NCBI GenBank assembly: GCA_029865125.1
Contig: JAOUHN010000002.1
Span: 713-64,712 of the forward strand
Source of the DNA: Candidatus Moraniibacteriota bacterium
Lineage (GTDB): Bacteria > Patescibacteriota > Minisyncoccia > Moranbacterales > UBA9337
Direction of reading: 5' to 3'
DNA: 64,000 bases
Notes under the pieces: model-generated
Database searches by the model: none
What the model was told of the DNA's origin: nothing
The model's input: only the letters and a program-made list of their open reading frames with translations
Program-made: the position numbers and the translations under genes
In this document: one piece after another, positions 2,149 to 62,198 of the stretch
Layout of the letters: each line of letters begins with the position of its first letter
How positions within the stretch are numbered: the stretch's first letter is position 1

Positions 2149-2277
2149 AATTGAGATTTGAGAATTGAGATTTGAGAATTAAAAATTCGTGTTAAGTGGA
2201 AGAAGATAGAAATAGAAAAAATCCCTCGCGAGGGATTTTTTATTTTCTCAACTCTCTTTCTCAACTCTCAATTCTAA

Positions 2278-3282
2278 TTAGGATAGTTCCATTTCAGAAA
2301 GTTTTTTTCGAGCCTCAGCCTGCATGTCTGTGATTGTGTCATTTTCATCAACGATTTCAATGCGAAGCACTTCCTCGATGATATCTTCAAGTGTGACTGC
2401 TCCTTCTAGACCACCGTATTCATTGAAAACAAATGCAAAATGACTTTTTTTCTTGATGAATTCTGATAAAAGTGAGTCTAGTTTTTTCCCTTCAGAAACA
2501 CGAATCAATTTATTTGTGCGAAGTATTTTTGAAATTTCTTCTCCAAATGGAATCCCAATTAAATCTTTGGAGTACAAAAGACCAATGATGTTGTCAATTC
2601 TTTTTTCATATACTGGAATTCTTGTGAATCCTTTTTCTCGTATTTTCTCCAAAGTTGTTTTATCTAGAACAGTATGTGAATCAAGAGTAAACAAAACTGA
2701 TCTTGGAGTCATGACATCTTCTACTGTTTTATGAGAAAAAGAAAGCGCCCCAAGAATAATTCTTTCTTCATCAGAATCAATATCAGAATGTGGAGAATCT
2801 TCATGAAGTTTCACAATTTCTCGAAGCTCATCTTTGCTCCAGATGGTCGGCATTTCTTCACCAAGTATTCTGTTGAGTGCCCATGCCATAGGAGCACAAA
2901 CCGGATAGAAGATGAAAATAAAAAAACGCACCAAAAAAACAGATTTGGCTCCAAACTTGAGAGCATGTCTTGAAAACACTGCCTGTGGAATGATTTCTCC
3001 GAAAATAACAATAAGAGCAGTTGATATGATCCCTGCTATAACCCCACTAACAATACTTCCCAGAAAGATACTGATTGCTGAGTTGACCGCAACGTTTCCA
3101 ATGAGAAGGGTGACCAAAAGGAGGTTTCCGTTTTTGCGAACGGGATACACCTTTTTTGCATCCTTGTTTCCAAGCTTAATTTTTCTTTCAAGATCTGTTT
3201 TGTTGAGACTAAGAAGACCCAGATTCAATCCGGAAAAGATTCCGGAAAGTGTAATAAGAACGAACACTAAAAAATACGCCAT
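2278..3282 (-). CDS. CNNM/CorC-family membrane protein (DUF21 + CBS pair), hemolysin-like
   Basis: N-terminal multi-TM DUF21-like region (MAYFLVFVLITLSGIFSGLNLGLLSL...) followed by CBS-pair region and short C-terminal domain. Confidence 0.75.
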   Translation of the reverse strand: MAYFLVFVLITLSGIFSGLNLGLLSLNKTDLERKIKLGNKDAKKVYPVRKNGNLLLVTLLIGNVAVNSAISIFLGSIVSGVIAGIISTALIVIFGEIIPQAVFSRHALKFGAKSVFLVRFFIFIFYPVCAPMAWALNRILGEEMPTIWSKDELREIVKLHEDSPHSDIDSDEERIILGALSFSHKTVEDVMTPRSVLFTLDSHTVLDKTTLEKIREKGFTRIPVYEKRIDNIIGLLYSKDLIGIPFGEEISKILRTNKLIRVSEGKKLDSLLSEFIKKKSHFAFVFNEYGGLEGAVTLEDIIEEVLRIEIVDENDTITDMQAEARKKLSEMELS

Positions 3283-3303
3283 AAAAAATTTTAAAAATTA
3301 CAT

Positions 3304-3420
3304 TTAAAGTATACCACATAACATGAGACATGTATCATAGAGCGCGTAACATATAGCATAGAGCATGAAACATGTGGCATGGGACATGAAATACGTGATA
3401 TTTAACATAGAACAGTGTAG
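3304..3420. repeat. degenerate 9-bp tandem repeats (CATAGAGCA/CATGAAACA/CATGGGACA family)
   Basis: Visible tandem 9-mers. The same family recurs at 8860-8965, 18351-18595, 19290-19345, 24958-24990, 40358-40395, 41283-41325, 46782-46985 and 48080-48200. Confidence 0.8.
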
Positions 3421-3545
3421 TAAAAAAGTCAAAGGTACATAAGGTCTGTAAAGTCCGTAAAGTCCGTAAAGTCCATTGAGTCCATAAAGTCGAAAGTCTG
3501 TAAAGTCCGTAAAGTCTGTAAAATCCATTGAGTCCATAAAGTCGA
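3421..3545. repeat. tandem GTAAAGTCC / CATTGAGTC 9-bp repeats
   Basis: gtaaagtccgtaaagtccgtaaagtccattgagtccataaagtcgaaagtctgtaaagtccgtaaagtctgtaaaatccattgagtccataaagtcgaaagt. A second array is at 53395-53465. Confidence 0.85.
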
Positions 3546-3808
3546 AAGTGTTTCCAAGCTATTGGGCTATTACGAGGCGGCTATTGACAAAATTGATGAA
3601 ATATGCTAGGATGTACAGTCAAGTTGAAATGAGATTTGAGATGGGAGATTTGAGAATTGAGAATTTTTAAAACTAAATATATTAGGAAAATGTTTGGAGA
3701 GAGACATGAATTTTAAAAAGAAGACAACCGTTAGTCTTTTTGTGTCTCAGTGTCTAAGCATATTGATTACACAAGATTGATAGTTGTTTTTTTATTCTAT
3801 CGTTACTT

Positions 3809-3891
3809 GTCATTCTGAACTTGATTCAGAATCCCGAAATAATATCACGCGCGTTAGTCGTGGGGGATCCTGAAACAAGTTTAGGATGACA
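3809..3891. mobile_element. palindromic MITE-like element, family A (GTCATYCTGAAC...GTTCAGRATGAC)
   Basis: gtcattctgaacttgattcagaatcccg...ggatcctgaaacaagtttaggatgaca. Each arm is itself a hairpin. Homologous copies are at 13745-13827, 20106-20190, 42880-43290, 55632-55723 and 62199-62281. Confidence 0.8.
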
Positions 3892-4807
3892 TGGTGTATA
3901 AGTTGGGAAGAAGAATTGTGAAAAAGATAAAGATGAAGAAATTAATTCAGGGCATATATATGAAAACAGGCCTCACGAATCAATTTTCAGAAAAAGAATC
4001 GATTTCACAATTCTCTTTCTCAGAAATTAGAGTTGAGATTTGAGAGGTGAGAGTTGAGAAATAATGAAAAGATTTTTGGGAACAATCCTTGTGGTTGAAC
4101 CCAAAAATCTCTTGGTTATTTTGACTAAAGAGAAAAAATGTTCTTTTAGACCCAATCGTTTTTTTGTTGAGTTGATAGAGGCGGGCATAATTTGAAAATA
4201 GCATTTGGATTTTTTAGTCTTGCCAGGCTGAAAATAAAAAATGATGATTTTTTAATTATGGCTCTTTAAGATTTTTTTTCGGGAAAAAGGAGAATGCTTT
4301 GAAAAAAGCAAGAGAACCTCCCAGAGGTGGGACTCAAAACAAAGGCGTAGTAGCCCGGCAGTTATTTTCACCCGTAAGGATTCTGTCGTGATACTTTTCA
4401 ATGAGATTTGGCAGTTTCAAAGAAAGTAAAAGGATGCAGGGGGTTTGTGGTTACCTCCAAACAAAAAGCACAAGTTTTTCTGATTTAGATTTATTGAGGA
4501 GGCATGGCCCTCAATGAATAGAATTTTTCAGAAAACTAACTCAATGAGCCTTAGGTCAAGGCCAAAAAAATGATCCCATGAAAATAAAAAAGTGTGTTTT
4601 TCGCACAAGCACTTACATTACTAATTCGGATTATTGTGCGACAATGAATAATCCGAATATAATTTTCAAATGATTACGAAGATTTGCTCAATAAATTATT
4701 TTTGCTCAAATCCTCCTGATCATTTGTTTTATGATTAGGTGTAATTTGACAATTAGGTATTGGATTTAACATTAATTTTTCACGGAGATTTTTCAAGGAG
4801 GCTCTGA

Positions 4808-5296
4808 ATGTGGAAACTAGGTTCTGATGAATTAGTCAGTAATCGACATCACAGTCATCTTCATGATGATGTGGCTGAAATTTTGACTGAGGCGTTGTCT
4901 AGAATTGATTCTGGGAAACGAGATTTTTTCGTGGAACAGGTGGATTTTGGTAGAGTTGTTGGAGAAACGATTTGTGTTGCCACTGATAATGGTGATGAAA
5001 TTGTTTTTGCAAAACGGCCGAAGCGATATGGGCATACTCGATTTGTGAAAACCAAAAGGCCTGAGCCGTGCTCAAGTCTTGTGGTTATTCTCAAGAAAAT
5101 CGAGACTGGATATGTTCTCATATCGGCGTTTGTTGGCGTTAAGCCACAGCCGGAACCTTGGGATCACAGAAGTTTTTCCCAGCAATCTGATCCGCAAAAG
5201 GCGGAAAGACTGGCGATAGAATTTTGGAACTCGCATGCTCTTGTTTGGGGCTGCGATGTGATTTCAGGGACAGAGACAACTCGATGCCCTTGGTAA
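4808..5296 (+). CDS. hypothetical protein, first gene of GC-rich MoxR-vWA operon
   Basis: 162-aa ORF, AGGAGG RBS 8 nt upstream (4794-4799), GC content clearly above surrounding genes; no recognisable family. Confidence 0.5.
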   Translation: MWKLGSDELVSNRHHSHLHDDVAEILTEALSRIDSGKRDFFVEQVDFGRVVGETICVATDNGDEIVFAKRPKRYGHTRFVKTKRPEPCSSLVVILKKIETGYVLISAFVGVKPQPEPWDHRSFSQQSDPQKAERLAIEFWNSHALVWGCDVISGTETTRCPW

Positions 5297-5473
5297 AATT
5301 CGAGAATTAAGCGACTTACTTCGCGTGTTTTGACAAAATTCAGAACATAGGCGAGTAAGCGTCTATGATTTCTAGGTGATTCCCCACCAGCAAGAGCGGG
5401 AGAAGTGCAAGGTCTGAAATTGTCAACAATCGGCAGTGAAAGAGCGCTAAAACTTATCTGATGGAGAAAGATC

Positions 5474-6553
5474 ATGACTAATATCGCACAAAAAATCCAA
5501 AAAAGCCTGGTAGAATCTTTTGTTTTCACTAATGAAATCGCAAGGATACTCTCCTTGGGATTTGTTGGAAAAAGAAACATTATCGTTTTTGGGCCTGGCG
5601 GACATGGAAAGTCTGCAATGGTACAAAAGGTCATCGAAGACCTCGGTATGGCCGAGGAAACCTTTTTTCAATTCTTTGGCGAAGGCATGGACGAGTCCCG
5701 TCTTTTTGGCGGACTCAACTTCAAAAAGTTAGAAGAGGAAAAAGTTTTGGAATACTATCCCGAGAAATCTTTTCTGAATTCTCGGGTGGCCGTGTTTGAG
5801 GAGCTCTTTGATGCTCCTGCATCAGTTTTACTAGCTCTTAAGGACGTGTTGACTGCCAAAGAGCTTAGGAATGGATCGCAGCGATTCAAAATGAAAACCG
5901 AGGTTATTATTTGTCTTACCAACAAAGAGCCGAGCGAAATTTCGGACCTTGGTCCGGCAACTCATGCATTGATTGAGCGGTTTCCGCTTCAGCTCAATTT
6001 GAAGTGGAAGGACTATTCAGCTAAGAGTTATCTTCAGATGTTTGAGAAGGTAGCACATCAGTTTGACGGACCGGTTCTCAACGGATTCAAAGCTGTCTTG
6101 GCTGAAATTTTGGCCAAGGCTACCGAGGAAGGAAATTTTGTTTCTCCGCGGACAGCCGTGCACGCTTTTCAAGTGTGCCAAACGGCAGCGCAAATTCGTG
6201 GAGCAACCCAGGTTGAAAAGCAGGATCTCACTGATCTTCGTTTTTTGCCTGGACTTGAGGGCCTTGCTGAGACTATTCAGAAGGACCTCAATGTTGCCAT
6301 GGAGCGAGCCGAAGCGGAGGCTAAACTGGTTGAGGCAGAAGAAAAACTTCGGCGGTTAACCGGAGAACTTCGTGAAGCTAGTGCGCCGATTAAGGCGCTT
6401 CAGGTTGCCAAGAAATTGATGGCTTTTCAAGATGAGACTGCCAAGTTAAAAGTGACCGATGGTCTCAAGGATCGTCGCAAGGCGATTCGCGACTCGGTCG
6501 GTGAAAAAATCGCTGAGGCTCAAGCAAGAGCTTTGGAAAATACCCGCATTTAA
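5474..6553 (+). CDS. MoxR-like AAA+ ATPase with C-terminal coiled coil
   Basis: Walker A GPGGHGKS. MoxR/AAA_5-like core (VAVFEELFDAPASVLLALKDVLTAKELRNG...VIICLTNKEP...ATHALIERFPLQL, sensor LIERF ~ LDRF). C-terminal heptad-like AEAEAKLVEAEEKLRRLTGELRE. Confidence 0.7.
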   Translation: MTNIAQKIQKSLVESFVFTNEIARILSLGFVGKRNIIVFGPGGHGKSAMVQKVIEDLGMAEETFFQFFGEGMDESRLFGGLNFKKLEEEKVLEYYPEKSFLNSRVAVFEELFDAPASVLLALKDVLTAKELRNGSQRFKMKTEVIICLTNKEPSEISDLGPATHALIERFPLQLNLKWKDYSAKSYLQMFEKVAHQFDGPVLNGFKAVLAEILAKATEEGNFVSPRTAVHAFQVCQTAAQIRGATQVEKQDLTDLRFLPGLEGLAETIQKDLNVAMERAEAEAKLVEAEEKLRRLTGELREASAPIKALQVAKKLMAFQDETAKLKVTDGLKDRRKAIRDSVGEKIAEAQARALENTRI

Positions 6554-6563
6554 GGAGGGGCAG

Positions 6564-7919
6564 ATGACACAATTTACATTTCGGACATCTTCCTCGCCGA
6601 CATACATCTCGCCTAGTGCGGATGAAATGCGGGAGATGGGAGAGAAGCTGGGTCTCAAGAAATTTTCAAGAGATCTCGTAGCTGATCTTTGCAATCTGGC
6701 TTCTGGGGGAGTGGTAAATCCTCCTTCCACGTATCGCAATGAAGTACAGCGTAAAGTGGAGGACAAGCTTCCCGCTCCTAATGACAAGGGGCAGTGGAAG
6801 AGCAAGGCCGGGAAATGGACAGCGGATCGACAGATGATGATTGTCGAAGGCACGGAAAAAGCCATGAGATATCATCAAAATGTTTGTGATTTTTTGCAAG
6901 CAGTCGAGTTGGATAAATTTCCCGGAAATTCACCACTTGAAAAAGCAATGAACCTTCTTAAGCTCCTGTCGAAGAAAAACGGAGCTGCAGGAGGCGACGA
7001 AGGAGAAGAGCCTCTTCCAATCTTCACGGACAATGATCAATCGGAAGAGATTGGGGAGAGTTTGAATCAACTTATGGACGACATTGATTCGTTGTCTAGT
7101 GATGAGAAACAGCTGCTTGATCCTGAAGAGTCTGACTCTGAGGGCGAAAGTAAAGGTGACGGAGACGATAATCTTCGAAAAATGAAGCTTGCCGAAGATT
7201 TTTTGAGAGGCAAGGAAATGATGCTTGAGATCTCGAGAAATCTGGACAGGCTCACGCGGATGCAGGTTCGAAAGAGCAAGAAGCAAGAGCCGGATCCAGC
7301 GGGAGACAGTGTCAGAAATCGTCCAATGAAGCATTTGGACGAGATGCATCGGATGGTAAAGCCTGAGTGGGCGTTGCCTAGTGCTTATCGTACCTATCGA
7401 ATGGTGACAAAGGCTGCCCAGGTTCGCGAACGTGTCACGACCATTGAGAAAAAGCAGTTATTGTATGTTATTATTGACTGCTCAGGATCAATGGGTCAAG
7501 GGAAGCGGATTTTCAAGGCTGGTGGAATTCTCATGAATCGCCTTAAGGCGGTGATTGAGGGTGAAGCTGAGCTATATGTTCGGCTTTTTGATACAAATCT
7601 TAAAGACGAGCATCATGCTTCGTCTTCTAGTGAGGCAAAGGAGTTGATTCGCCATTTTACAGAAAAGAATTATTCTGGCGGTTCAACGGATATCTCAGCT
7701 TGCGTTCGAGCAGCGCAAGAGCGTATCAATGAAATTGTTGCGCAAGGATCAACTTATCGTCCCGAATTAGTCATCATCACAGATGGCGATGATAAGATAA
7801 ATTTGACTTTGCATGAGCTCAAAGGGACAAAGGCTCATGCGTTTGTGGTCGAATGTGCAAATAAGGCGCTAACTGATCTCGCTATTTCTACAGGCGGGGT
7901 TGGAATAAATAAAATGTAG
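6564..7919 (+). CDS. von Willebrand factor A (vWA) domain protein with long acidic N-terminal region
   Basis: Start reassigned to ATG 6564 behind AAGGAGGGG RBS (the ORF-track start at 6459 overlaps the MoxR gene). MIDAS motif DCSGSM ... GGSTD ... ITDGDD. Acidic linker DDIDSLSSDEKQLLDPEESDSEGESKGDGDD. Confidence 0.8.
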   Translation: MTQFTFRTSSSPTYISPSADEMREMGEKLGLKKFSRDLVADLCNLASGGVVNPPSTYRNEVQRKVEDKLPAPNDKGQWKSKAGKWTADRQMMIVEGTEKAMRYHQNVCDFLQAVELDKFPGNSPLEKAMNLLKLLSKKNGAAGGDEGEEPLPIFTDNDQSEEIGESLNQLMDDIDSLSSDEKQLLDPEESDSEGESKGDGDDNLRKMKLAEDFLRGKEMMLEISRNLDRLTRMQVRKSKKQEPDPAGDSVRNRPMKHLDEMHRMVKPEWALPSAYRTYRMVTKAAQVRERVTTIEKKQLLYVIIDCSGSMGQGKRIFKAGGILMNRLKAVIEGEAELYVRLFDTNLKDEHHASSSSEAKELIRHFTEKNYSGGSTDISACVRAAQERINEIVAQGSTYRPELVIITDGDDKINLTLHELKGTKAHAFVVECANKALTDLAISTGGVGINKM

Positions 7920-8599
7920 AATTGGAGGTGGACATGGTGCGAATAAGAGATTCTCCTTAGCTAGTAATCCAATGCTAGAGAGAGGTAGTAGCTCAATCAC
8001 AAGAAAAACTACCCGGCGGTATGCTTCCGATTTTTCTTTAGAGAAGTCGCCGTCGTTAACTTTCAAGAATTCGAATAGTTTTTGAAAGAAATTAGGGAGC
8101 AAGGGGGTTAATGAAAAGGAGCGAAACCTCTAAACAAAAAGAGCGTAAATATTGATAATGAAATGGCTGTGGAGGTATGACCCACGAAATCAATCTTATC
8201 AATATCCTTTCATAATTCTTTAGCTGAGTAGAACACAAAAAATCAGCATCATAACCTGAACAAGTTTTAGAATATTTGACTTGCTCTTGCATGCCTTTTA
8301 AAAAGGACAAGATTTGTTAGAATTTATTCTCATAAATCGGTAAGATCCATCTGCTAAACGGGAAAAGCCATGCAGGTGATAAATATTCCGAATCGTTTCA
8401 TTCTTTAGGTTGAGGGAGTTTGAAACATATGATTTCTGTGGCTTCAATCTGTGAACAGGCGCAGTAAACCCTCTTAACGCGCAATCAGCTGATTGTGTAT
8501 CGTTAATTCTACAAGGAGGTTCAGATATAATTTATCTGTTCCTCCTTAACTTAATATTAGTATTGATATAAATCGTTTTGGATTTGCAGGGTAAGCTAA

Positions 8600-8760
8600 G
8601 AGCCTGTTTAAAGTCTCCGTATTCTACTGCGAATCTGAGATTTTGGCTGCAAAATACCTAAATTTCGTTGAATTACTTTCCAAGTAGTCCTGTCTCAATT
8701 TATGTATTTTTCGCCTAAAATCTCAAATTCTCGCTACGAAAAGAGATTTTAAACAGGCTC
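8600..8760. mobile_element. MITE-like element family B (~160 bp, TIR GAGCCTGTTTAAA)
   Basis: gagcctgtttaaagtctccgtattctactgcgaatctgag...gagattttaaacaggctc. Near-identical copies at 28322-28481 and 32558-32718. Confidence 0.8.
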
Positions 8761-9289
8761 CGAGGTATTTCGTGAGTTTCATTTTTGGAGCTCAACTCTC
8801 TCCTTGAAATACTTTCTAGCCTACTTTGCAAATCTAAGACGGTTTGCAATATGTAGCATAGAACATAGAACATATAGCATAGAACATATAACATGGAGCA
8901 TAGAGCATGGAACTTAGAACATGGGACATATGACATAGAACACATAACATACAGCACATAATATACAGCATGGAGAATAATACAGGTGAATTTCGGTTCA
9001 GCTGTTTTTTTGTGTATGAATTAGAGTTGAGATGGTAGATCTGAGATAGAGAAACCCCTCCTCAGTCCTCCCCTTTAAAAAGAGGAGGAGGAAGTGAGAA
9101 TAATTTAAGATGTGATATGAGAAATATAAACCCCCTTTCCGCCAATTGGCGGACTCCCTTTGATGGAAAGGGGAGGAAGGAGGTGTTTTGTAATAGTTTG
9201 ATTTGATGATATAATATCACTATAGGAGATGCGAGAGGAGAGATAGGGATTTGAGAAATAATTTTAGAAAACTTAAAAATTAAAAACAT

Positions 9290-9664
9290 ATGAAAAATAA
9301 AAAATTAGTATTGTTTCAAAAAAAAGAAATTAGAAGAGTTTGGCATGAAGAGGAGTGGTGGTTTGTGGTTATTGATGTTGTGGGTGCTTTGACCGATTCA
9401 GTTAATCCGGCGGGATACCTTAAGGATATGAAGCGTAGAGATGATGAAATTTCCAAAGGGTGGGGGCAAATTGCCACCCCCCTTGCAGTTGAGACAGCTG
9501 GAGGAAAACAAAAAATTAACTGTTCTAATGTGGAAGGAGTTTTCAGGATAATCCAATCCATCCCATCACCCAAAGCGGAGCCCTTCAAGCGTTGGTTGGC
9601 GAAAGTTGGGAAAGAAAGGATGGATGAGATTGAGAATCCGGAATTAGTATTTAGTGTAAGCTAG
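9290..9664 (+). CDS. BRO-N domain protein (DinD-like), apparently C-terminally truncated
   Basis: EIRRVWHEEEWWFVVIDVVGALTDS...VEGVFRIIQSIPSPKAEPFKRWLAKVGKERMDEIENPEL matches the BRO-N / DNA-damage-inducible-protein-D family. The protein is only 124 aa and is followed by a 32-bp tandem duplication (9652-9715). Confidence 0.7.
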   Translation: MKNKKLVLFQKKEIRRVWHEEEWWFVVIDVVGALTDSVNPAGYLKDMKRRDDEISKGWGQIATPLAVETAGGKQKINCSNVEGVFRIIQSIPSPKAEPFKRWLAKVGKERMDEIENPELVFSVS

Positions 9665-9727
9665 AGTTGACACTAAATGGGTATTTAGTGTAAGCTAGAG
9701 TTATCACTAAATTAAAATCTTAAGAAA

Positions 9728-11170
9728 ATGGCTATAAAAAAGGAAAAAATAAGAAATTTCTTGAATGATCAAATCGCTCAGGCGGAGTTTAGAGCAAAAG
9801 CATATGTTTTTGATGAGGATAACAAAAGAAGGCCTCAGAGGAGTATTTTTGTTAAGATTAGGTCATATTTTGAGGATTTTTTCACTGCAAACAAATCAAA
9901 GCGATGGATTACTCTGACTGGTCTTCGTGGTGCTGGGAAAACTACGCTCATGTATCAACTTTATCACGAATCAAAAGTACGCGATTGTTACCGATTGATC
10001 TTATCATTGGATCAAGTGACGCAGATTATGGAAAGTAATATCAGCGAGGTTTTGCAGGTGTATGAAGAAGTAATAGGGTGTCACTTAGAAAATCTAGACA
10101 AGCCATTGTTGCTTTTTTTGGACGAGGTTCAATATGACCCTAAATGGGGAGTAGCATTGAAATCAGTTTATGATAGGAGTGATAAAGTGTTTATTTTTGT
10201 TACTGGTTCGGCTGCTTTGCACATGAATAGTAATACTGATATTGCAAGAAGAACTATATTTGAAAAACTATTTCCACTCAGCTTTACGGAATATTTAAAA
10301 ATTAAGAATAAAAAATTTCCCATTAAAGGTCTCAGCGGTAGAGTTCGAGGTGCTATTTTTGCTTCCGATTCGGCGAAGCAATGTTTTGAAGAACTTAAGG
10401 CTATTGAAAAACATGCGGATAAGTACTATATGGGAACAACGCGTATTGATTTTCAAAAATATCTTAATTATGGATCTTTACCATTTATGATTGCACTTCA
10501 AAATGAAGCCATTGTATATGATCAGATCAGCAAAACATTAGATAGAGTTGTTAATAATGACATTGCACAGCTGGGAAATTTTTCGCAAGAAGTTGTTTCG
10601 GTTATTCCTGCAATTCTGTATGCAGTGGCGGATATGGACGCTTTTAACTTTTCCACTATTTCGAATAAGTTTGGTTTGAGTCGGGCAAAGGTAGCTGAGA
10701 TTTTTTCAATTCTTGAACAAACAGAGATTTTATTTAGAGTCTACCCTCATGGATCTCATTTGAGTCAGTCAGTTCATACGACGAAAAAGCCATCCAAGTA
10801 TCTTTTTTCATCCCCTGCTTTTCGAATGATGTATTATAAGATGATTGGAAGTATTATTTCTGAGCAAAACACCAAAGGAAGATTACTGGAAGATTTGGCA
10901 GGGATGTATTTGCATAGATTTTTATATAAAAATACTTATGCATCACTGACATATGACAGTGCAAAGGGAGGCGCAGATTTTATTTTGACGATGCACAATA
11001 AGAGGTTAGTAATTGAAGTTGGCTCAGGAAAAAAAGGATATCGGCAAGTGATTGAAACTGCTAAGAAGGTAAAGGCAAGTTATTCAATCATTGTTTCTGA
11101 AAATGAGTTAGAATTTTCTGAAGAATTTAATGCAGTTAAAATTCCTATTAGATTATTTGTGTTAATGTAG
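9728..11170 (+). CDS. AAA-family ATPase (AAA_14 + DUF4143 type)
   Basis: Walker A GLRGAGKTT, Walker B LLFLDEVQY, DUF4143-like C-terminal region. Confidence 0.7.
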   Translation: MAIKKEKIRNFLNDQIAQAEFRAKAYVFDEDNKRRPQRSIFVKIRSYFEDFFTANKSKRWITLTGLRGAGKTTLMYQLYHESKVRDCYRLILSLDQVTQIMESNISEVLQVYEEVIGCHLENLDKPLLLFLDEVQYDPKWGVALKSVYDRSDKVFIFVTGSAALHMNSNTDIARRTIFEKLFPLSFTEYLKIKNKKFPIKGLSGRVRGAIFASDSAKQCFEELKAIEKHADKYYMGTTRIDFQKYLNYGSLPFMIALQNEAIVYDQISKTLDRVVNNDIAQLGNFSQEVVSVIPAILYAVADMDAFNFSTISNKFGLSRAKVAEIFSILEQTEILFRVYPHGSHLSQSVHTTKKPSKYLFSSPAFRMMYYKMIGSIISEQNTKGRLLEDLAGMYLHRFLYKNTYASLTYDSAKGGADFILTMHNKRLVIEVGSGKKGYRQVIETAKKVKASYSIIVSENELEFSEEFNAVKIPIRLFVLM

Positions 11171-11179
11171 AGTTACGAT

Positions 11180-12754
11180 ATGAATAAATTAGATTTGAGA
11201 AAGAGATTTGAGAAAATAATTGAATATCTTTTTTATGTGGCTGTTTTTCTGCTTCCTTGGCAGACGGTTTTTTTGGTGCGTGAAATTTTTGTGGGGGGTG
11301 AGAAGTGGCAATATGGGACTGTTGGGGTGTATTTGAGTGATGTTGTTTTGGTTTTGTTGTTGGGTCTGGTTGTAGTGGGAAAATTGAATGTTGAGACAAA
11401 TTTTCAATTTTCAATTTTTCACCCTATGGGCGATCACCCGAAGGGTGACAATTTAAAATCAATTTTTAATGATGAATTTAAAAACAAGCAAAAACATGTC
11501 ACGGCGAACTTGTTTCAAAATCCCAAGCGAATATTGAGCGCGTGGTTTGATAAGGGGATCCTGAATCAAGTTCAGGATGACAAAGTGAGATGGTTTGCGG
11601 GACTATTTTTGTTTTGGATTGCGCTGTCAATTTTTTGGTCGCCGGACAAATTTTTGGCGACATATTTTTTCTTCAAAATTCTTTTAGGGGTGGGATTGTT
11701 TTTTGCAATTGGGCGCATCAAATTTGATTGGAAAAAATTAATCTTTGTTTTGTTTGTGAGTGCTGTTTTTCAAGCTGGACTGGGAGTGCAGCAATATTTG
11801 ACTCAGGAGGTTTTTCCAAACAAATGGCTGGGAATAAGTGAGCATCAAGCATTTGAGGGGGGCGCAAGTGTTGTTGAGAATTCAAATGAAAGATGGCTTC
11901 GGGCGTATGGTGGATTTGAACACCCGAATGTTTTGGGAGGATTTTTGGTTTTGATAATTTTGGTGATTATTGGGGTAAATTTTCAATTTAAAATTTTTCA
12001 CCCTATGGGCGATCACCCGAAGGGTGACAATTTAAAATCAATTTTTAATGATAGAATTTTAAAAAGAAAAAAATATTTTACACTTGGATTGCTGGTTGTG
12101 AGTTGTTGGCTGCTGATGACTGGTTTGTTTTTTTCTTTTTCAAGAACTGCTTGGTTGGCTTTGATTGTTGGTTTAATCATCTTGACTGTGCTGAAATATA
12201 AGGGGATCCTGAATCCCGCTCCAGGCGAGGCGAGGCAAGTTCAGAATGACAAAGTGAAGTGGTTGATGATTATTTTGATTCCTATAATTTCAATTTTAGT
12301 GATGAATTGGAGTAATTTTTTCACTCGTTTTGATGCTGGTGCGAGGCTGGAACAGAAATCTGTGAGTGACAGGGTGAGTTATTTTTTTGAGGCGAAAGAG
12401 GTGATTGAAAATAATTTGTTTCTTGGAGCGGGGACAGGAAATTACGTCCAGGAAGTGATGAAAAATGATGAACTCAAAAAAGATGTGTGGGAATATCAGC
12501 CCGTTCATAATGTTTTCTTGTTGATTTTTTCTGAGCTGGGGCTCATCGGACTTGTGTTATTTGTTGGGTTATTGATTTTGATAATGCGCAGATGTGGACT
12601 AGAATCACTTCCAATATTTGCAGCGCTGTTGATTTTCATGATGCTTGATCATTGGCTTTGGACCAGTCATTTCGGAATGCTATTTTTCTGGCTAATTTTA
12701 GGACTCACTTGTTGCAAAAAGTCCTCTGGTGTAAGATTGAAAAGAGGTTTTTGA
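11180..12754 (+). CDS. O-antigen ligase (Wzy_C)-like polytopic membrane protein carrying three in-frame repeat-element insertions
   Basis: Multi-TM protein with SRTAWLALIVG and PVHNVFLLIFSELGLIGL (O-antigen ligase-like HN..L..E.G motif). The ORF stays open through two copies of the caccctatgggcgatcacccgaagggtgaca element (11400-11470, 11985-12055) and two family-A MITE arms (11555-11582, 12203-12251). Confidence 0.55.
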   Translation: MNKLDLRKRFEKIIEYLFYVAVFLLPWQTVFLVREIFVGGEKWQYGTVGVYLSDVVLVLLLGLVVVGKLNVETNFQFSIFHPMGDHPKGDNLKSIFNDEFKNKQKHVTANLFQNPKRILSAWFDKGILNQVQDDKVRWFAGLFLFWIALSIFWSPDKFLATYFFFKILLGVGLFFAIGRIKFDWKKLIFVLFVSAVFQAGLGVQQYLTQEVFPNKWLGISEHQAFEGGASVVENSNERWLRAYGGFEHPNVLGGFLVLIILVIIGVNFQFKIFHPMGDHPKGDNLKSIFNDRILKRKKYFTLGLLVVSCWLLMTGLFFSFSRTAWLALIVGLIILTVLKYKGILNPAPGEARQVQNDKVKWLMIILIPIISILVMNWSNFFTRFDAGARLEQKSVSDRVSYFFEAKEVIENNLFLGAGTGNYVQEVMKNDELKKDVWEYQPVHNVFLLIFSELGLIGLVLFVGLLILIMRRCGLESLPIFAALLIFMMLDHWLWTSHFGMLFFWLILGLTCCKKSSGVRLKRGF

Positions 12755-12784: not shown

Positions 12785-13735
12785 GTGCCTGAATTACCAG
12801 AAGTACAAACTATTGCTGACGATTTGAACAAAAAAATCAAGGGCGACAAAATCGTTGATTTTGAAAGTTTTTGGAAAAAGTCCATCAAGGGTGGATCCTT
12901 TGATGAATTTTTGCGTGGAATTGTGGGAAGAAAAATTGAAGGCGCACGAAGAATCGGGAAGAATCTTTTCATTGATTTGTCAGGTGGAAAAACGATTTAC
13001 ATTCATTTGAAGATGACGGGACACTTGCTGGTGAAACCAGCAAGCATGAAGCATGGAACACAAAACATGGAACAAAAAATTCAAAATGCAAAGCAAGAGG
13101 GGTATTTTGATGAAAAGGTGAATCAGTATATTCGACATGTGTTTTATCTCAAAGATCAAAATGCAAAACTCAAAACCACAATTCAAAAGTCAAAACTTTT
13201 AAATGCAAAATATGATAAAACGCTTGAATTTTCGGATCTGAGGAAGTTTGGGAAGATTATGCTGGTGGATACTGAAAAAGTAATGAAATTGCCTGAGATC
13301 GCAAAATTGGGCACAGATGTGATGGATGAGAAGTTTACTGTGAAATTGTTCAAAGAGATTTTGAAGAAGAAGCAAAAAAGTGTCATCGGAAATGTTTTGA
13401 TGGACCAATCTTTGATTTCTGGAATCGGAAATATCTACAGAAGTGAGATTCTTTTTGAATCGGGAGTGGATCCGAAAAGGAAAGTGAGTGAGCTGAAGGA
13501 TAGCGAAATTGAGGAGATGTACAAAAATACACTGAAAATAATCAAAAAAGCAATCAAGCTTCGAGGAACATCCGACAGTGATTATCGCGATACCTCCGGA
13601 GCTCCTGGAGAAATGCATAGGTTTTTGAAGGTGTATAATCGTGAAGGTGAAAAATGTAAAAAATGTGATACAATAGTGAAAAGAAAAAAAATTGGGCAGA
13701 GAAGTATTTATATATGCTCAGAGTGTCAAAAATAA
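12785..13735 (+). CDS. mutM: formamidopyrimidine-DNA glycosylase
   Basis: GTG start giving MPELPEVQT (catalytic N-terminal Pro). RKFGKIML ~ PRRFG. C-terminal zinc finger CKKCDTIVKRKKIGQRSIYICSECQ. Internal low-complexity insertion 13046-13210. Confidence 0.9.
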   Translation: MPELPEVQTIADDLNKKIKGDKIVDFESFWKKSIKGGSFDEFLRGIVGRKIEGARRIGKNLFIDLSGGKTIYIHLKMTGHLLVKPASMKHGTQNMEQKIQNAKQEGYFDEKVNQYIRHVFYLKDQNAKLKTTIQKSKLLNAKYDKTLEFSDLRKFGKIMLVDTEKVMKLPEIAKLGTDVMDEKFTVKLFKEILKKKQKSVIGNVLMDQSLISGIGNIYRSEILFESGVDPKRKVSELKDSEIEEMYKNTLKIIKKAIKLRGTSDSDYRDTSGAPGEMHRFLKVYNREGEKCKKCDTIVKRKKIGQRSIYICSECQK

Positions 13736-13744
13736 ATTTCTCGT

Positions 13745-13827
13745 GTCATTCTGAACTTGATTCAGAATCCCGAGATGATACCGCGCGTGTTATTTGATGA
13801 GGATCCTGAATCAAGTTCAGGATGACA
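13745..13827. mobile_element. MITE family A copy
   Basis: gtcattctgaacttgattcagaatcccgag...ggatcctgaatcaagttcaggatgaca. Confidence 0.8.
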
Positions 13828-15077: not shown

Positions 15078-15109
15078 ATTTAAAATTTAAAATTTAAATT
15101 AAATTTCCA

Positions 15110-15481
15110 ATGAAAAAATGTTCCAATGGAAGTTATGATTTAGAGGAAAGAACAGCTGTATTTGGCGAAGATGTGATAATTCTTTGTAAGAAAATTTCCA
15201 AAAATGAAATAACAAAACCGCTTATAAGTCAAATAATAAGATCGGCTACTAGTGTGGGCGCTAATTATCTGGAGGCTAATGGTGCAAGTTCTAAGAAGGA
15301 TTTTCGTAATAAGATTTTTATTTGCAAAAAAGAATCTTAGGAAACAAGGCATTGGCTTAGAATGTTAGCGAAAGCATGTGATGGAAATAAAGATAAATTA
15401 AGGGTTTTATGGCAAGAATCTAGGGAGTTGGCAATGATATTTAGTAAAATTTGTAGTACTATTGATAATGGGAAAAAGTAA
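15110..15481 (+). pseudogene. four-helix-bundle protein (23S rRNA IVS-protein family) interrupted by an in-frame TAG
   Basis: GANYLEANGASSKKDFRNKIFICKKES-TAG-ETRHWLRMLAKACDGNKDKLRVLWQESRELAMIFSKICSTIDNGKK. The family consensus KES.ET.yWL continues across the amber codon at 15338-15340. Confidence 0.55.
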
Positions 15482-15546
15482 ATTTTTGAATTTTCTGATT
15501 TAAAATTGATTTAAAATTTTAAACTTAAAATTTTAAATTTAAAAAG

Positions 15547-17897: not shown

Positions 17898-18350
17898 GTG
17901 AAATTTATGAGTGATTTGTTTGAGGGAGCAATAACAATATTTTATCGAGATAATGGAGGTGAGAATGAATTTTTGGTAGTGGAAAATTCTTCTTCAGGAA
18001 ACATCACTTTTGTTGGTGGTGCTAAGGAAGGATTCGATGAAAGTTTGGTGGAAGTGGCTAGACGTGAAAATGAAGAAGAGCTGGGGATTGACCCGGATGA
18101 ATATGAACTTGTTGAGACTGATGTTTTTCACAAATTTGTTTTTTCTCCTCACAAAAAGAATCGAGTGGGAAATGAAGGAAGGTATCAAGTTTTTGTTTCA
18201 GACTTGAGTGATGCTGATTTTGAAATTACTCCAACGGATGAACTCAAAAATGTTTGGTGGATGAGTGAGGAAGAGGTTTTTGACAACTTGACCTTTGATG
18301 ACTTGAAAGATGTTTTTGAAAGAGTGTTGGATGAAGGAGTGATAGCGTAG
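17898..18350 (+). CDS. NUDIX hydrolase
   Basis: Nudix box GGAKEGFDESLVEVARRENEEELGI. Confidence 0.8.
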   Translation: MKFMSDLFEGAITIFYRDNGGENEFLVVENSSSGNITFVGGAKEGFDESLVEVARRENEEELGIDPDEYELVETDVFHKFVFSPHKKNRVGNEGRYQVFVSDLSDADFEITPTDELKNVWWMSEEEVFDNLTFDDLKDVFERVLDEGVIA

Positions 18351-18595
18351 AACATGGAACACATAGCATATAACATAGAGCATGGAACACATAGCATGGA
18401 ACACATAGCATAGAACACATAGCATAGAACACATAGCATAGAACACATAGCATAGAACACATAGCATAGAACACATAGCATAGAACACACAGCATATAAC
18501 ATAGAGCATGGAACACATAGCATATAACATGAAACACATAGCATAGAACACATAGCATAGAACACATAGCATGAGACAGATAGCATAAAAAATAT
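18351..18595. repeat. ~17 tandem copies of 14-bp unit ACATAGCATAGAAC
   Basis: Directly visible. The all-Cys/Tyr/Met minus-strand ORFs here are translation artefacts. Confidence 0.9.
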
Positions 18596-18600
18596 TCAAG

Positions 18601-18624
18601 CCCCGTGGGATGCGTCCCGCGGGG
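18601..18624 (-). terminator. GC hairpin terminator for 18634-19176 gene
   Basis: ccccgtgggatgcgtcccgcgggg, followed on the minus strand by a T-run. Confidence 0.55.
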
Positions 18625-20061: not shown

Positions 20062-20105
20062 ACGTGCGTAGGAATATTAAATTTAATTAATTCTCACGTA
20101 AGCAT

Positions 20106-20190
20106 GTCATTCTGAACTTGATTCAGAATCCCGAGATAATGTTGAGTGCGCGCGGATATAGGGGGATCCTGAAACAAGTTCAGGATGACA
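20106..20190. mobile_element. MITE family A copy between regulator and efflux genes
   Basis: gtcattctgaacttgattcagaatcccgag...gggggatcctgaaacaagttcaggatgaca. Confidence 0.8.
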
Positions 20191-42769: not shown

Positions 42770-42879
42770 ACTTGAATTCTTACAGTTTTTGATCGTTGAA
42801 TTATACATGTTGTGCGATGAAGATTTAAAGTATGCAATTTGGTGAACAAAAAATGGCAATTGAAGCTCATATAAAACAT

Positions 42880-43290
42880 GTCATCCTGAACTTGTTTCAG
42901 GATCCCAAAGAATAAGCACCTGCTTAATTTAGAAGATAAAGCCATATATGAAACAGTATTGTGTTTATATAATAACTAACAATAATAACACTTCTTTATA
43001 TATTGGAGTAACAGGTAATTTGCAAAAAAGAATCTGGGAACACAAGGACAAGGTAGTAGAGGGTTTTACTAAAAAATACAACTGTGAAAAATTAGTATAT
43101 TTTGAACAAACAGAAAATGTTCACAGTGCACTCAACAGAGAAAAGCAATTAAAAAATTGGCACAGGCAATGGAAAATAAATCTGATTTCTAAGAGTAATC
43201 CAGAGTGGAAAGATTTATTTGATGAATTATGATGTATTAAATTTAACATGTGCTAGTTGCAGGGGATCCTGAAACAAGTTCAGGATGACA
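42880..43290. mobile_element. family-A palindromic element whose two arms flank a GIY-YIG nuclease gene (candidate autonomous copy)
   Basis: Left arm gtcatcctgaacttgtttcaggatccc at 42880; right arm ggggatcctgaaacaagttcaggatgaca ending at 43290. The 285-bp ORF lies between the arms, whereas other copies have only a 20-40-bp spacer. Confidence 0.65.
42948..43232 (+). CDS. GIY-YIG nuclease family protein (COG2827-like, 94 aa)
   Basis: CVYIITNNNNTSLYIGVTGNLQKRIWEH ... KLVYFE ... EKQLKNW = GIY-YIG motif with conserved R and E. Confidence 0.75.
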   Translation: MKQYCVYIITNNNNTSLYIGVTGNLQKRIWEHKDKVVEGFTKKYNCEKLVYFEQTENVHSALNREKQLKNWHRQWKINLISKSNPEWKDLFDEL

Positions 43291-46306: not shown

Positions 46307-46780
46307 ATGATGTTAAAAATAACTATTCTTTCAGTTGGAAAGATTAAAGAAAAATATTATCAAGGAATCATTGATGAATATGCAAAGAGGCTCACTCCGT
46401 ATGTTAAGCTTGATTTTGAGGTGCTCAAAGCAGAGCCTTTTTTTGATGATAGTGACAAGGAGGGAATAAAGAACAAAGAAGGAGAAAAAATTGTCAATTT
46501 TCTTGAAAAAAACAGATGGAGCAAAATTTTTATTCTTGATGAAAGAGGAAAAGAATTCACTTCTCATGAATTTTCAAAAGAAATTCATGACGGCACTGAG
46601 CCTATTGTTTTTGTGATTGGAGGAAGTTTAGGTTTGAGCCAGAATGTTTTGAGTTATCCCGGATCAAAAAGAATGGCGCTTTCTGAAATGACTTTTCTTC
46701 ATGAGATGACACAAGTGATTCTCATTGAGCAGATTTACCGCGCTGTGGCTATTGAGAAGGGGAAGAAGTATCATTACTAG
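46307..46780 (+). CDS. rlmH: 23S rRNA (pseudouridine1915-N3)-methyltransferase RlmH
   Basis: MLKITILSVGKIKEKYYQGIIDEYAKRL start typical of the RlmH SPOUT family; 157 aa. Confidence 0.8.
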   Translation: MMLKITILSVGKIKEKYYQGIIDEYAKRLTPYVKLDFEVLKAEPFFDDSDKEGIKNKEGEKIVNFLEKNRWSKIFILDERGKEFTSHEFSKEIHDGTEPIVFVIGGSLGLSQNVLSYPGSKRMALSEMTFLHEMTQVILIEQIYRAVAIEKGKKYHY

Positions 46781-46781
46781 T

Positions 46782-46985
46782 AGCACATAACATAGAACAC
46801 ATAGCACATAGCATAGAACATATAGCACATAACATAGAACATATAGCACATAGCATAAAACATATAGTGCAGAACAAAAAATCCGGATTTATCCGGATTT
46901 TTTGTTCCATGTTCCATGTTCCATGTTCCATGTTCCATGTTCCATGTTCCATGTTCCATGTTCCATGTTCCATGTTCCATGTTTT
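46782..46985. repeat. inverted pair of short-period repeat arrays flanking a terminator hairpin
   Basis: CATAGAACA-type units 46782-46870, hairpin aaatccggatttatccggattt-ttttg (46875-46904), then 9x ATGTTCCATG in opposite orientation 46905-46985. Confidence 0.85.
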
Positions 46986-47847
46986 ACATTCCAAGCATTG
47001 AGAAGATGATCATGAGAATGATGATGTTTGTTGTTGAGATGTGGTGGAGTCGGTTGGGGTTGATGGAAGATATGATGTTGATGTGAACCACAATTGCAAG
47101 GGAAATGAGAGTGAGAATGACAATGATATTTCTCAAGACGTCACTTTGCTTGTTGATTTTTGCTGAAAGAACAAAGCTATTTTTTTGTTCCTTTTTTGAA
47201 TATGCGCTGGGTTCAAGTTTCAAATCAGATGAAGAAATTTTTGAATCTGGAGTGGTGTTTTTCAATGCCATTAAAGTGCTTCCTCCGACTGCAGAAGAGG
47301 ATGAAGCAATTGATGAATATTTTTGACTCAGAGTTTGATTTTTTGGTTGAGCAAAAAGTTGAACTGAAATGATGACTTGTTTGTTTTTGATTTCCCCTTC
47401 CAAGACAGCGACGCCGGTTTCTTGATAATTTGGGTCAAGAATATTTTCTCTGTGAGTAGGGCTATTCATCCAAGCGGTGTGTTGCGAAAGAGGATCTTTG
47501 TAGTTTATTGCCAAATTTTCTCCAGCATATCGATATTCATATTCACTTGAACGAAACCAATACCATGGTGTTTTTCCTGCTGGAGAAGTGTGTGAGAAAT
47601 AGTTGTTGCTGATCATGTCGTAGGCCTTTTTTTGTGCTGCCTCTTTTAATTTTTCATTTTCAGTTAGTGGTGCGAGTTCTTTTTCCATTCTTGATTGATT
47701 GGTGAGTCGAACTATTTCTTGTGGAGTTATTTGCGCAGCCCAAGCGCAGGAGGCGACAAAAGACATCAATACTATTGAAGTGAAAATTGAAATATTAAAT
47801 TGTTTGTTTGTGATTTTCATTTTTGAAATATAAAAAAAGCGCTTCAC
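46984..47847 (-). CDS. CAP (SCP/PR1-like, YkwD-type) domain protein, membrane-anchored
   Basis: NYFSHTSPAGKTPWYW ... GENLAINY ... HTAWMNSPTHRENIL; C-terminal TM; the true start may be the internal MKITNKQF. Confidence 0.65.
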   Translation of the reverse strand: MKRFFYISKMKITNKQFNISIFTSIVLMSFVASCAWAAQITPQEIVRLTNQSRMEKELAPLTENEKLKEAAQKKAYDMISNNYFSHTSPAGKTPWYWFRSSEYEYRYAGENLAINYKDPLSQHTAWMNSPTHRENILDPNYQETGVAVLEGEIKNKQVIISVQLFAQPKNQTLSQKYSSIASSSSAVGGSTLMALKNTTPDSKISSSDLKLEPSAYSKKEQKNSFVLSAKINKQSDVLRNIIVILTLISLAIVVHINIISSINPNRLHHISTTNIIILMIIFSMLGM

Positions 47848-47929
47848 CCATGAAACACCCTTATATTTGCGAACCTCCTTATTTGTCTATAACATCATTA
47901 TAGCGCATTTTAAGGGAAAAGTCAAATCC

Positions 47930-48200
47930 ACATAACACATAACACATAACACATAACACATAACACATAACACATAACACATAACACATAACACATAACA
48001 CATAACACATAACACATAACACATAACACATAACACATAACACATAACACATTAAGCACTAGTCGGTGAGTTTTGATTTATGTTTTCCATGTTCCATGAT
48101 ATGTGTTTTATGTTCTATGCTCCATGATATGTGTTTCATGCTCCATGTTCCATGATATGTGTTTTATGTTCTATGTTCCATGTTCCATGATATTATTGTA
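47930..48200. repeat. ~18x CATAACA 7-bp tandem array followed by opposite-orientation CATGGAACA-type units
   Basis: cataacacataacacataaca... then atgttccatgatatgtgtt... Confidence 0.9.
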
Positions 48201-48234
48201 TAATGAAAGTGTAAGAAGAATAACAATAAAAAAT

Positions 48235-53139: not shown

Positions 53140-53212
53140 GCATCCATAGCTCAGTCGGTAGAGCAGTTGCCTCTTAAGCAAACGGTCGTAGGTTCGAATC
53201 CTACTGGGTGCA
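53140..53212 (+). tRNA. tRNA-Lys (anticodon CTT)
   Basis: Manual cloverleaf: acceptor GCATCCA/TGGGTGC, D arm GCTC-AGTCGGTA-GAGC, anticodon loop CTCTTAA, T arm GTAGG-TTCGAAT-CCTAC, discriminator A. Confidence 0.85.
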
Positions 53213-53262
53213 CAAATGAGATTTGAGATGATAGATTTGAGATAGAGATAGGAAAGAAATAT

Positions 53263-53334
53263 GCCCCCATAGCTCAACGGATAGAGCAACAGCCTTCTAA
53301 GCTGAAGATCTAGGTTCGATTCCTGGTGGGGGTA
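53263..53334 (+). tRNA. tRNA-Arg (anticodon TCT)
   Basis: Acceptor GCCCCCA/TGGGGGT, D arm GCTC-AACGGATA-GAGC, anticodon loop CTTCTAA, T arm CTAGG-TTCGATT-CCTGG. Confidence 0.8.
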
Positions 53335-53478
53335 CATTGTTAAATTAAAAATCAAAAATTGAAAATCAAAAGTTTGGAATGCAGAAATGCAAGGTGAAAG
53401 TTTGTGAAGTCTGTGAAGTCCATAAAGTCCATAAAGTAAAAAGTCTGTAAAGTCTAAAGAAAAAATCAAAAAAACACT

Positions 53479-53523
53479 GTCATCCTGAACAATAGTGAAG
53501 GATCCCAGAATAAAAGCACTGAT
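53479..53523. mobile_element. solo left arm of MITE family A
   Basis: gtcatcctgaacaatagtgaaggatcccagaataaaagcac. Confidence 0.55.
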
Positions 53524-62147: not shown

Positions 62148-62198
62148 ATGTATGTGGATTTTAAAATATAATTTTTTTCAAAAAATCTGCGCAAACAT

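Follow-up and report, generated by a model that had tools for sequence, protein, structure and literature searches.

Small dispersed repeats of bacteria fall into several described groups. Repetitive extragenic palindromes (REPs), and the REP doublets called REPINs, are extragenic by definition. In-frame intragenic MITEs (miniature transposable elements with inverted repeats) and Rickettsia palindromic elements (RPEs) are both established according to PMC10969869, which summarizes the RPEs of Ogata et al. 2000 as elements of ~100-150 nt described with a conserved open reading frame (ORF). Here we analyze a 64,000-nt stretch of contig JAOUHN010000002.1 from Candidatus Moraniibacteriota, a member of the Patescibacteria or candidate phyla radiation (CPR). 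This stretch, hereafter the window, has a GC content of ~36% and a strongly positive GC skew, and all coordinates without a locus name refer to it. In an intact gene at 11180-12754 on the forward strand, which encodes a Wzy_C/WaaL-like membrane protein, some 80 additional codons stem from small genomic repeats of four or more kinds and lie at the N-terminus and in three loops. The ORF of this gene starts at an ATG and runs uninterrupted for 524 codons, passing through five repeat-derived segments without a stop. An original prediction made from the letters of the DNA had described an ORF reading straight through four such segments; the read-through and the segments are real, with repeats far commoner than chance, and the count now stands at five.

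By its behavior, the locus is RPE-like. As with RPEs, small palindromic dispersed repeats lie both between genes and in frame within conserved genes, orthologues without the insert exist, the added peptide sits at a position that the fold tolerates, and the host gene is intact. The comparison with RPEs had been drawn in the original prediction, and the orthologues, the loop positions and the retained invariant residues described below support frame-keeping insertion of this kind. The differences are that the host is a member of the Patescibacteria/CPR instead of Rickettsia, that the elements, at 30, ~70 and 84-86 nt, are shorter, that four unrelated repeat types occur in one gene with one nested in another, and that most copies of the palindromic family A (in its 84-nt form) have no open frame at all. 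We do not place the locus in any described RPE family, and a sequence relationship is not expected. The literature we searched holds no description of in-frame repeats in CPR/Patescibacteria or of the element sequences themselves, which agrees with the earlier surmise of novelty and is absence of evidence only. The reading we favor, with a probability of roughly 75%, is that small non-autonomous or slippage-prone repeats have been filtered by selection to copies that are in frame, free of stops and confined to loops, and that they are carried as disordered cytoplasmic linkers in a functional enzyme.

The host protein is recognizable by several measures. It is 100% identical to an NCBI entry named 'O-antigen ligase family protein [Candidatus Moranbacteria bacterium]', encoded on a 66-kb contig, and matches Pfam Wzy_C over residues 308-462 (E = 7e-19; 68.5 bits against a cut-off of 31.7); a match to the NCBIfam IctB family falls far under its cut-off. 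An AlphaFold2 model based on a 118-sequence alignment has a mean predicted local distance difference test score (pLDDT) of 86.7, a predicted template-modeling score (pTM) of 0.88 and 12 long transmembrane (TM) helices. Its sole significant fold match in the PDB, found with Foldseek, is the WaaL O-antigen ligase 7tpg_B (E = 1.4e-5, probability 1.00), at just 11% identity and a TM-score of 0.47-0.58. The Pfam and fold matches confirm that the gene encodes an O-antigen-ligase-like membrane protein, as proposed from its sequence. The protein resembles WaaL and other Wzy_C proteins in its Wzy_C match, its 12 predicted TM helices and its fold match, and differs in being ~75 residues over the family median because of the inserts (524 aa here versus a median of 448 aa among 120 homologues). 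Family-invariant and near-invariant residues are all kept, including R241, Y243, G244, P249, N250, S321, R322, R383, S394 and R398. The product is probably a full-length glycan-transfer membrane enzyme, functional by prediction, and we infer that it is synthesized in full and active. Lipopolysaccharide synthesis is not expected of CPR bacteria.

We compared the protein with its orthologues, which share synteny of PolA ... Wzy_C-Fpg-DUF3048-holA(-S20) in the window and in the comparison loci L001, L002/L003, L081 and L082. The orthologous proteins are P0002 in L001 (54% BLASTP identity), P0009 in L002/L003, P0004 in L081 and P0011 in L082. Measured between conserved anchors, loop region 1 spans 106 residues in the window and 93, 80, 64 and 82 residues in L001, L002, L081 and L082, respectively; the corresponding lengths are 65 versus 55, 40, 79 and 75 residues for loop region 2, and 63 versus 64, 51, 61 and 51 residues for loop region 3. 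Relative to the shortest orthologous loops, the window protein has 42 + 25 + 12 = 79 extra residues, and at loop 3, the site of the split arm described below, L002 and L082 are each 12 residues shorter. Orthologue alignment, the check proposed earlier, found the inserted segments mostly missing from the four syntenic orthologues and from 117 homologues; the columns of the 118-sequence alignment that hold the inserted residues are for the most part filled in <15-50% of homologues. By this comparison, the inserts are lineage-specific additions to three loops.

These alignments also bear on whether the arrangement reflects misassembly of repeats inside the gene, or a gene in decay. The contig comes from a metagenome-assembled genome (MAG), repeats are classic misassembly sites, and the window holds another broken gene, a four-helix-bundle ORF with an in-frame TAG. 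Against such an origin, the gene is collinear with its orthologues from end to end and has all conserved blocks in order, and a 1,575-nt open frame would be unexpected under decay in a genome of 36% GC. Moreover, the invariant residues are intact, the structure model is confident, and orthologues from independent assemblies contain the same kind of insert. We find an artefact or pseudogene hardly credible.

Both the AlphaFold2 model and the homologue alignment map the repeat-derived inserts to the loops TM2-3, TM6-7 and TM8-9, confirming the earlier expectation that they would fall between helices. Low model confidence is confined to residues 71-130 (block means 53-72), 271-300 (45-61) and 341-360 (71-76) and to the C-terminal tail. 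Conserved Arg/His-rich motifs lie in the loops of opposite parity, TM5-6, TM7-8, TM9-10 and TM11-12. In the work on 7TPG, both WaaL termini are reportedly cytoplasmic and the catalytic residues outside. Based on helix parity and a WaaL-like topology, the three insert-bearing loops are probably cytoplasmic, on the face opposite the conserved Arg/His residues.

Two of the five segments are copies of an AT-rich, 7-nt-periodic element, both on the forward strand. Copy 1 (11399-11473, with similarity reaching to ~11500) lies in loop TM2-3 and encodes NFQFSIF...NLKSIFND, and copy 2 (11978-12052, with similarity to ~12080) lies in loop TM6-7 and encodes NFQFKIF...NLKSIFND. The shared 75-nt unit is 73/75 identical between the two sites and includes 59 exactly identical nucleotides (11415-11473 and 11994-12052; 0 expected in shuffles), and similarity reaches 118 nt at 84%. 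The original prediction had placed a ~70-bp element at 11400-11470 and 11985-12055. Both copies and their peptides are as it described and the duplication is real, with two corrections: the second interval was ~7 nt off, and what was taken as one unit is a composite, an AT-rich element with a 30-nt twin hairpin nested inside it.

Eight intragenic elements of the AT-rich type, taken from the window and from four orthologues, were aligned with two intergenic arms from the window and share a 7-nt-periodic unit with the consensus AAATTTTCAATTTTCAATTTT CAATTTyCAATCAATTTTyAATG.... Among the loops of L001, L002, L081 and L082, the element is 78-90% identical at the nucleotide level, compared with 56-64% for the whole gene over aligned codons. 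L001 has an AT-rich element (NLKFKIFNLNSILNYEIFKRKKY) at the same site in loop TM6-7 without the ten twin-hairpin codons; the AT-rich part of the loop-2 element therefore predates the split from L001 and is no recent insertion. The element also occurs in frame in other genes: L082 has it in Fpg, and L002 has two copies in FemAB, the second of which holds a nested GC hairpin of its own (CCGCCAGCCGGCGG). Outside genes, inverted AT-rich arms bound a 469-nt intergenic cassette at 15078-15546, whose cargo is a gene for a four-helix-bundle protein (TIGR02436, E = 2e-13) broken by an in-frame TAG. This cassette is an insertion, since DUF3048 and holA abut in both L001 and L002.

The nested twin hairpin (CACCCTATGGGCGAT + CACCCGAAGGGTGAC) is GC-rich and occupies 11420-11449 in AT-rich copy 1 and 11999-12028 in copy 2, on the forward strand. 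The two are identical and each encodes HPMGDHPKGD. In both copies exactly 30 nt (CACCCTATGGGCGATCACCCGAAGGGTGAC, 10 codons) sit between ...AATTTT and CAATTT..., and 6/6 orthologous AT-rich elements lack the hairpin, leaving a clean 30-nt alignment gap. It is an exact 30-nt addition with no visible duplication at its flanks, and the composite element containing it folds at z = -3.0. A scan with CACCCNNNGGGNGANCACCCNNNGGGNGA, using one genome per species, returned 75 loci. About 30 of these are low-GC Patescibacteria-type contigs that carry TCACCCnnnGGGTGA twice, as a doublet of two 15-nt palindromic units that often form an exact 30-nt palindrome, and most of these copies are intergenic. The twin hairpin resembles REPs and REPINs in being a palindromic doublet, mostly intergenic and dispersed over many genomes. 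It differs from them in its much smaller size, in its in-frame presence in essential genes (AlaRS and RsmH), and in that 8/29 copies lie within 100 nt of a tRNA gene.

Twin hairpins are read in frame at several other loci (L006:4433-4461, L019:666-694, L056:3553-3581, L025:2447-2475 and L036:4229-4257). Compared with PDB 3HTZ, AlaRS of two Spechtbacterales-type genomes has HPxGDHPxGD as an insertion of exactly 10 residues, at the same site in both, and the motif also occurs in the RsmH protein of a Saccharibacteria MAG. Two more candidate cases lie in the C-terminal tails of a putative ribosomal protein S6 and a putative glycosyltransferase. One of the three phases of the repeat always yields a stop (TCA CCC nnn GGG TGA) and the other two are generally open. 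The coding twin hairpins observed, which represent about five independent events, are all in the hydrophilic HPxGD phase; the sequences are suggestive of a preference for it. Judged by its 30-nt length, equal to 10 codons, and its stop content, the twin hairpin is intrinsically tolerant of coding insertion.

The twin hairpin is absent from the viral contigs scanned, and a scan of metagenome_contigs with CACCCTATGGGCGATCACCC gave only two chance matches in a high-GC glycine-dehydrogenase-like gene. A peptide search with the composite element found no candidate through a word index and, with exhaustive HMMER, just one irrelevant tandem-repeat protein. No Rfam family matches any of the elements; the window has only two tRNAs by this search, and sub-threshold matches in the gene are noise. 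We rejected the twin hairpin as a terminator, as a terminator scan gave no terminator-like score. Among the 29 Patescibacteria-type twin hairpins, the eight close to tRNA genes are in L008, L029, L031, L043, L060, L065, L066 and L072, several of them 8-25 nt from the end of the tRNA gene. This proximity suggests either an insertion preference or a role in the termination or processing of tRNA transcripts.

A different palindrome, which we term family A, contributes two further segments. Family A elements are 84-86 nt long, with ~28-nt arms of sequence TGTCATyCTGAACTTGwTTCAGrATCCC and its reverse complement, each arm forming a small hairpin; in their terminal inverted repeats and small size they show MITE features. 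The arm motif GGGATCCTGAATC has 11 matches in the window versus 1.5 expected, and CAAGTTCAGNATGACAA has 12 versus 0.08 expected, with both matching at 11555-11583 and 12203-12252. The 64 kb contain four short intergenic copies, one gene-carrying copy and two genic copies. The original prediction recognized a MITE right arm at 11555-11582; the arm is present, as the end of a full-length 86-nt copy at 11497-11582 (forward strand). This copy, whose left arm is eroded, encodes VTANLFQNPKRILSAWFDKGILNQVQDD and shares 78% identity with the intergenic copy at 20100-20190. An arm pair had also been proposed at 12203-12251, and there we find instead a single forward-strand arm, GGGGATCCTGAAT...CAAGTTCAGAATGACAA (12202-12252, loop TM8-9), encoding KGILNPAPGEARQVQNDKV. 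It is split at 12215-12235 by a unique 21-nt GC-rich stretch that supplies the seven codons PAPGEAR.

The intergenic copies of family A are better preserved as hairpins. An 84-nt copy just 3' of the Fpg gene (13744-13827) is a near-perfect hairpin with a fold z-score of -10.6, and other complete intergenic copies lie at 3808-3891, 20105-20190 and 62198-62281. Intergenic copies score z = -6.3 and -10.6, versus -2.9 for the full genic copy and +0.55 (not significant) for the split arm. The Fpg-DUF3048 spacer that holds the 84-nt copy measures 163 nt in the window, versus 25 nt in L001 and 64 nt in L002. That the orthologous spacers lack this copy, and the AT-arm cassette between DUF3048 and holA, speaks for movement of the elements, as does a different palindrome in L001, described below. 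The 84-nt form has stops in six of six frames, and each strand of the 86-nt variant has a single open frame (VILNL...QVQDD); the genic copy is the 86-nt variant, read in its only open frame.

Family A also has a longer counterpart. At 42879-43290 on the forward strand, its arms enclose a 96-aa ORF (42942-43232) with a Pfam GIY-YIG match (E = 2.7e-17), a unit that may be a gene-carrying relative of the short copies. Compared with bacterial MITEs (ERIC, BOX and Anabaena, as covered in PMC10969869), family A is alike in its perfect terminal inverted repeats, its length under 100 nt, its dispersal, its presence or absence between orthologous spacers, and its longer same-ended relative with an ORF. 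It differs in lacking a recognized target-site duplication, in a cargo with a nuclease domain instead of a known transposase, in having arms that are themselves hairpins, and in the occurrence of near-identical arms in high-GC viral-flagged contigs. Its flanks display only a loose extension of the palindrome (ACATGTCAT...ATGACAnGT), with no clear direct duplication.

Family A arms are absent from 82/82 comparison loci, including the orthologous loci. Near-identical arms (CGTCATCCTGAACTTGTTTCAGGATCC ... GGATCCTGAAACAAGTTCAGGATGACG) occur in four viral-flagged contigs of 51-71% GC (L083:1925-1950, L084:2993-3018, L085:7911-7936 and L086:2281-2368), so the arm is conserved in very distant genomes. 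L086 contains a complete family A-type element of ~88 nt, and the right arm in L083 has compensatory changes in its inner hairpin. Two of these four contigs were inspected for GIY-YIG cargo, and neither has it.

The remaining segment lies at the N-terminus. A 26-nt GAGATTTGAGA repeat unit at 11189-11214 (forward strand) supplies codons 4-12, LDLRKRFEK, of an N-terminal extension, and orthologue N-termini are shorter or different. The unit is an exact match to intergenic 53523-53548, which upholds the earlier claim that the gene start lies in a repeat, and a further copy with 3 mismatches lies at 2245-2270. The GAGATTTGAGA family has 31 matches in the window versus 5 expected. At 53478-53548, near two tRNA genes (53140-53334), a variant left arm, TGTCATCCTGAACAATAGTGAAGGATCCC, stands 16 nt 5' of the same 26-nt unit.

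The orthologues carry other repeats in the same loops. In L001, loop TM2-3 holds in frame a palindrome of another family, TGTCATTTCGACCGA/TGTCATTTCGACCGAATCCGCC...CTCGAGATGACA (L001:6244-6390), which encodes CHFDRIRL...NCTRDD and has only the TGTCAT/ATGACA termini in common with family A; L001 also has AT-rich elements in loops TM6-7 and TM8-9. Loop TM2-3 of L002 contains four perfect AATTTCC units, and its other loops are minimal. Motifs of the NFQF type (NFQFSIFN or FQSIFN-like) occur in loop 1, loop 2 or both in 11 further homologues among the 120. In P0011 (L082:792-2240), loops TM2-3 and TM6-7 share ~50 residues, NFQF.IFNFQSI.N.LISKFRNSDL.QN...GNYNYVLRLTSYVL, extending into the next TM helix, which points to intragenic duplication or conversion. 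Because orthologues hold other repeats at these positions, the three loops are, on the sequence comparison, recurrent landing sites. As for the two composite copies in the window, their 73/75-nt identity parallels the intragenic copying in L082, and most likely AT-rich elements already present in the gene were homogenised by gene conversion within it; alternatively, the AT-rich element with its twin hairpin was copied as a unit.

The periodicity of the AT-rich element raises another origin for part of the added sequence. The AT-rich and GAGATTTGAGA parts could have arisen in situ by 7-nt slippage and intragenic duplication or conversion, with only the palindromic element and the twin hairpin inserted. 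Tandem arrays of 7 and 14 nt abound in the window, and the perfect AATTTCC units of L002 stand in the gene itself. The near-identity of the window copies, set beside an L001 protein that has the AT-rich element in loop 2 and not in loop 1, fits local copying, as does the sharing between loops 1 and 2 of L082, which takes in the start of the next helix. The non-periodic part of the element, CAATCAATTTTyAATG..., is however conserved across the orthologues, in the unrelated genes Fpg and FemAB, and in the inverted arms of the intergenic cassette, and independent slippage would hardly yield such conservation. We consider an in-situ origin unlikely as a full account; for the AT-rich parts it is partly compatible with the reading we favor.

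A further possibility is that the inserts were acquired for a function, either as selected loop modules for docking or regulation, or as DNA or RNA hairpins that serve as internal regulatory signals. Repeat-derived sequence in the same three loops of several orthologues would be expected under selection, as would an element conserved well above its host gene, and the model predicts short helices at residues 99-125. The roughly five coding twin hairpins, with none in the other open phase, would also fit, but this bias is equally explained by easier tolerance of a hydrophilic, turn-forming peptide. Moreover, orthologues differ freely in whether an insert is present and of which type, and the loops of many homologues are minimal. 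The inserts are modeled with low confidence, the same sequences occur in intergenic DNA and in unrelated proteins, the genic hairpins are decaying, and the twin hairpin scores as non-terminator-like. Together, these points make a functional acquisition improbable.

The repeats might instead make the gene a contingency locus, in which frequent frameshifts or deletions, mediated by the 7-nt tracts or by the direct repeats of 75 nt, would turn off a surface-glycan enzyme, as happens with simple-sequence repeats in other bacteria. Seven is not divisible by three, so adding or removing one unit would shift the frame; the product belongs to a surface-glycan family; and the 73/75-nt direct repeats lie 579 nt (193 codons) apart. 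The gene has only two to three imperfect units, however, too few for efficient slippage, and a deletion between the direct repeats could not be reversed. We found no variant contigs, the protein being the single member of its cluster on a single contig. We regard this explanation as very improbable.

In the selection-filtered reading that we favor, small non-autonomous repeats would spread through transposition or recombination, or through slippage in the case of the 7-nt arrays, and would land mostly in intergenic DNA. Genic copies would persist only where the frame is kept, no stop is introduced and the extra residues leave the fold undisturbed. The tolerated sites in this protein would be flexible loops on the face opposite the catalytic side, where the additions could be neutral. 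Once inside a gene, a segment would lose its hairpin potential by decay and evolve into a disordered linker. The twin hairpin would have landed in one AT-rich element, after which gene conversion would have homogenised both loops.

A number of observations weigh against this account. No target-site duplication was identified and no transposase is linked to any element, and the GIY-YIG ORF between family A arms is a mere association, its product carrying a nuclease domain and not an established transposase. At 86 nt, the genic family A copy does not divide into whole codons, and some additional base change or duplication, not visible here, must have come with it. Within the window, the twin hairpin is confined to the Wzy_C gene. 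The AT-rich element could have arisen in situ by slippage instead of insertion, and its high identity across orthologues is partly compositional, because the element is of low complexity. Recurrence in the same loops, together with an 'NDKV' end common to loop 3 of the window and L001, allows for ancestry or selection. Finally, the Lys/Arg bias calculated from the helix limits of the model is modest (18/109 inside versus 13/149 outside); with the positive-inside signal this weak, helix parity and the analogy with WaaL are the main grounds for the topology.

A broader hypothesis is that a CPR-wide set of tiny frame-tolerant repeats, comprising HPxGDHPxGD, the AT-rich element read as NFQFSIFNFQSIFN and hairpin-armed palindromes, routinely colonises loops of AlaRS, RsmH, Fpg, FemAB and Wzy_C and is re-homogenised by gene conversion, with the family A arm as a cross-phylum signal, possibly for a GIY-YIG nuclease. 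We advance this tentatively and lean somewhat against it; judged from a handful of loci, such a micro-repeat set may reach essential genes. If it does, CPR-wide repeats would be a major contributor, so far undescribed, to differences in protein length and to the origin of new disordered segments in reduced genomes. CPR genomes are small and streamlined, yet conserved genes here absorb selfish or slippage-prone repeats with the frame kept. Were the pattern general, gene calling, orthology and length comparisons in CPR MAGs would be affected, because such inserts mimic "novel domains". As natural markers, the inserts would also show where membrane enzymes and aminoacyl-tRNA synthetases have permissive loops, and would extend the RPE paradigm, in which selfish DNA gives rise to new peptide segments, past obligate intracellular Proteobacteria. 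The twin hairpin exemplifies in simple form an element made intrinsically coding-compatible by its length and stop-codon content.

The gene downstream of Wzy_C has in-frame segments of its own. Fpg (12785-13735) contains two lineage-specific 7-nt-periodic segments, SMKHGTQNMEQKIQNAKQ and AKLKTTIQKSKLLNA, at 13040-13095 and 13150-13215, which together make it ~25 residues longer than its L001 counterpart. The same Fpg loop holds other repeat-derived inserts in orthologues: L082 has the AT-rich element there (NFQFPISNFQ), and L002 has a 'PLLIKERGQKISPSPLQGEGARR' segment.

Upstream, PolA and Wzy_C are adjacent in L002 (5976-6001), ~2.7 kb apart in L081 (1286-4001) and ~9 kb apart in the window (2149-11179). 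The interval contains a CNNM/CBS gene and an AAA_14/DUF4143 ATPase in the window, and an AbiEii gene in L081. As both spacing and content differ among the window, L002 and L081, the PolA-Wzy_C junction is a variable region. Within the window, positions 6001-8000 have a GC fraction of 0.47 versus ~0.36 elsewhere and overlap a 486-aa ORF (6459-7919); this segment may be foreign DNA.

The window also contains long tandem arrays with a 7- or 14-nt period (CATAGAACACATAG, GTTCCAT and ACACATA types) or a 9-nt period (AAAGTCCGT). They lie at 8826-8998, 18315-18620, 46767-47033 and 47919-48213, and also at 3423-3562 and 53388-53457. Between convergent ORFs, at 46870-46900, a small palindrome, AAAAAATCCGGATTTATCCGGATTTTTT, has an array on either side, the two being oppositely oriented.

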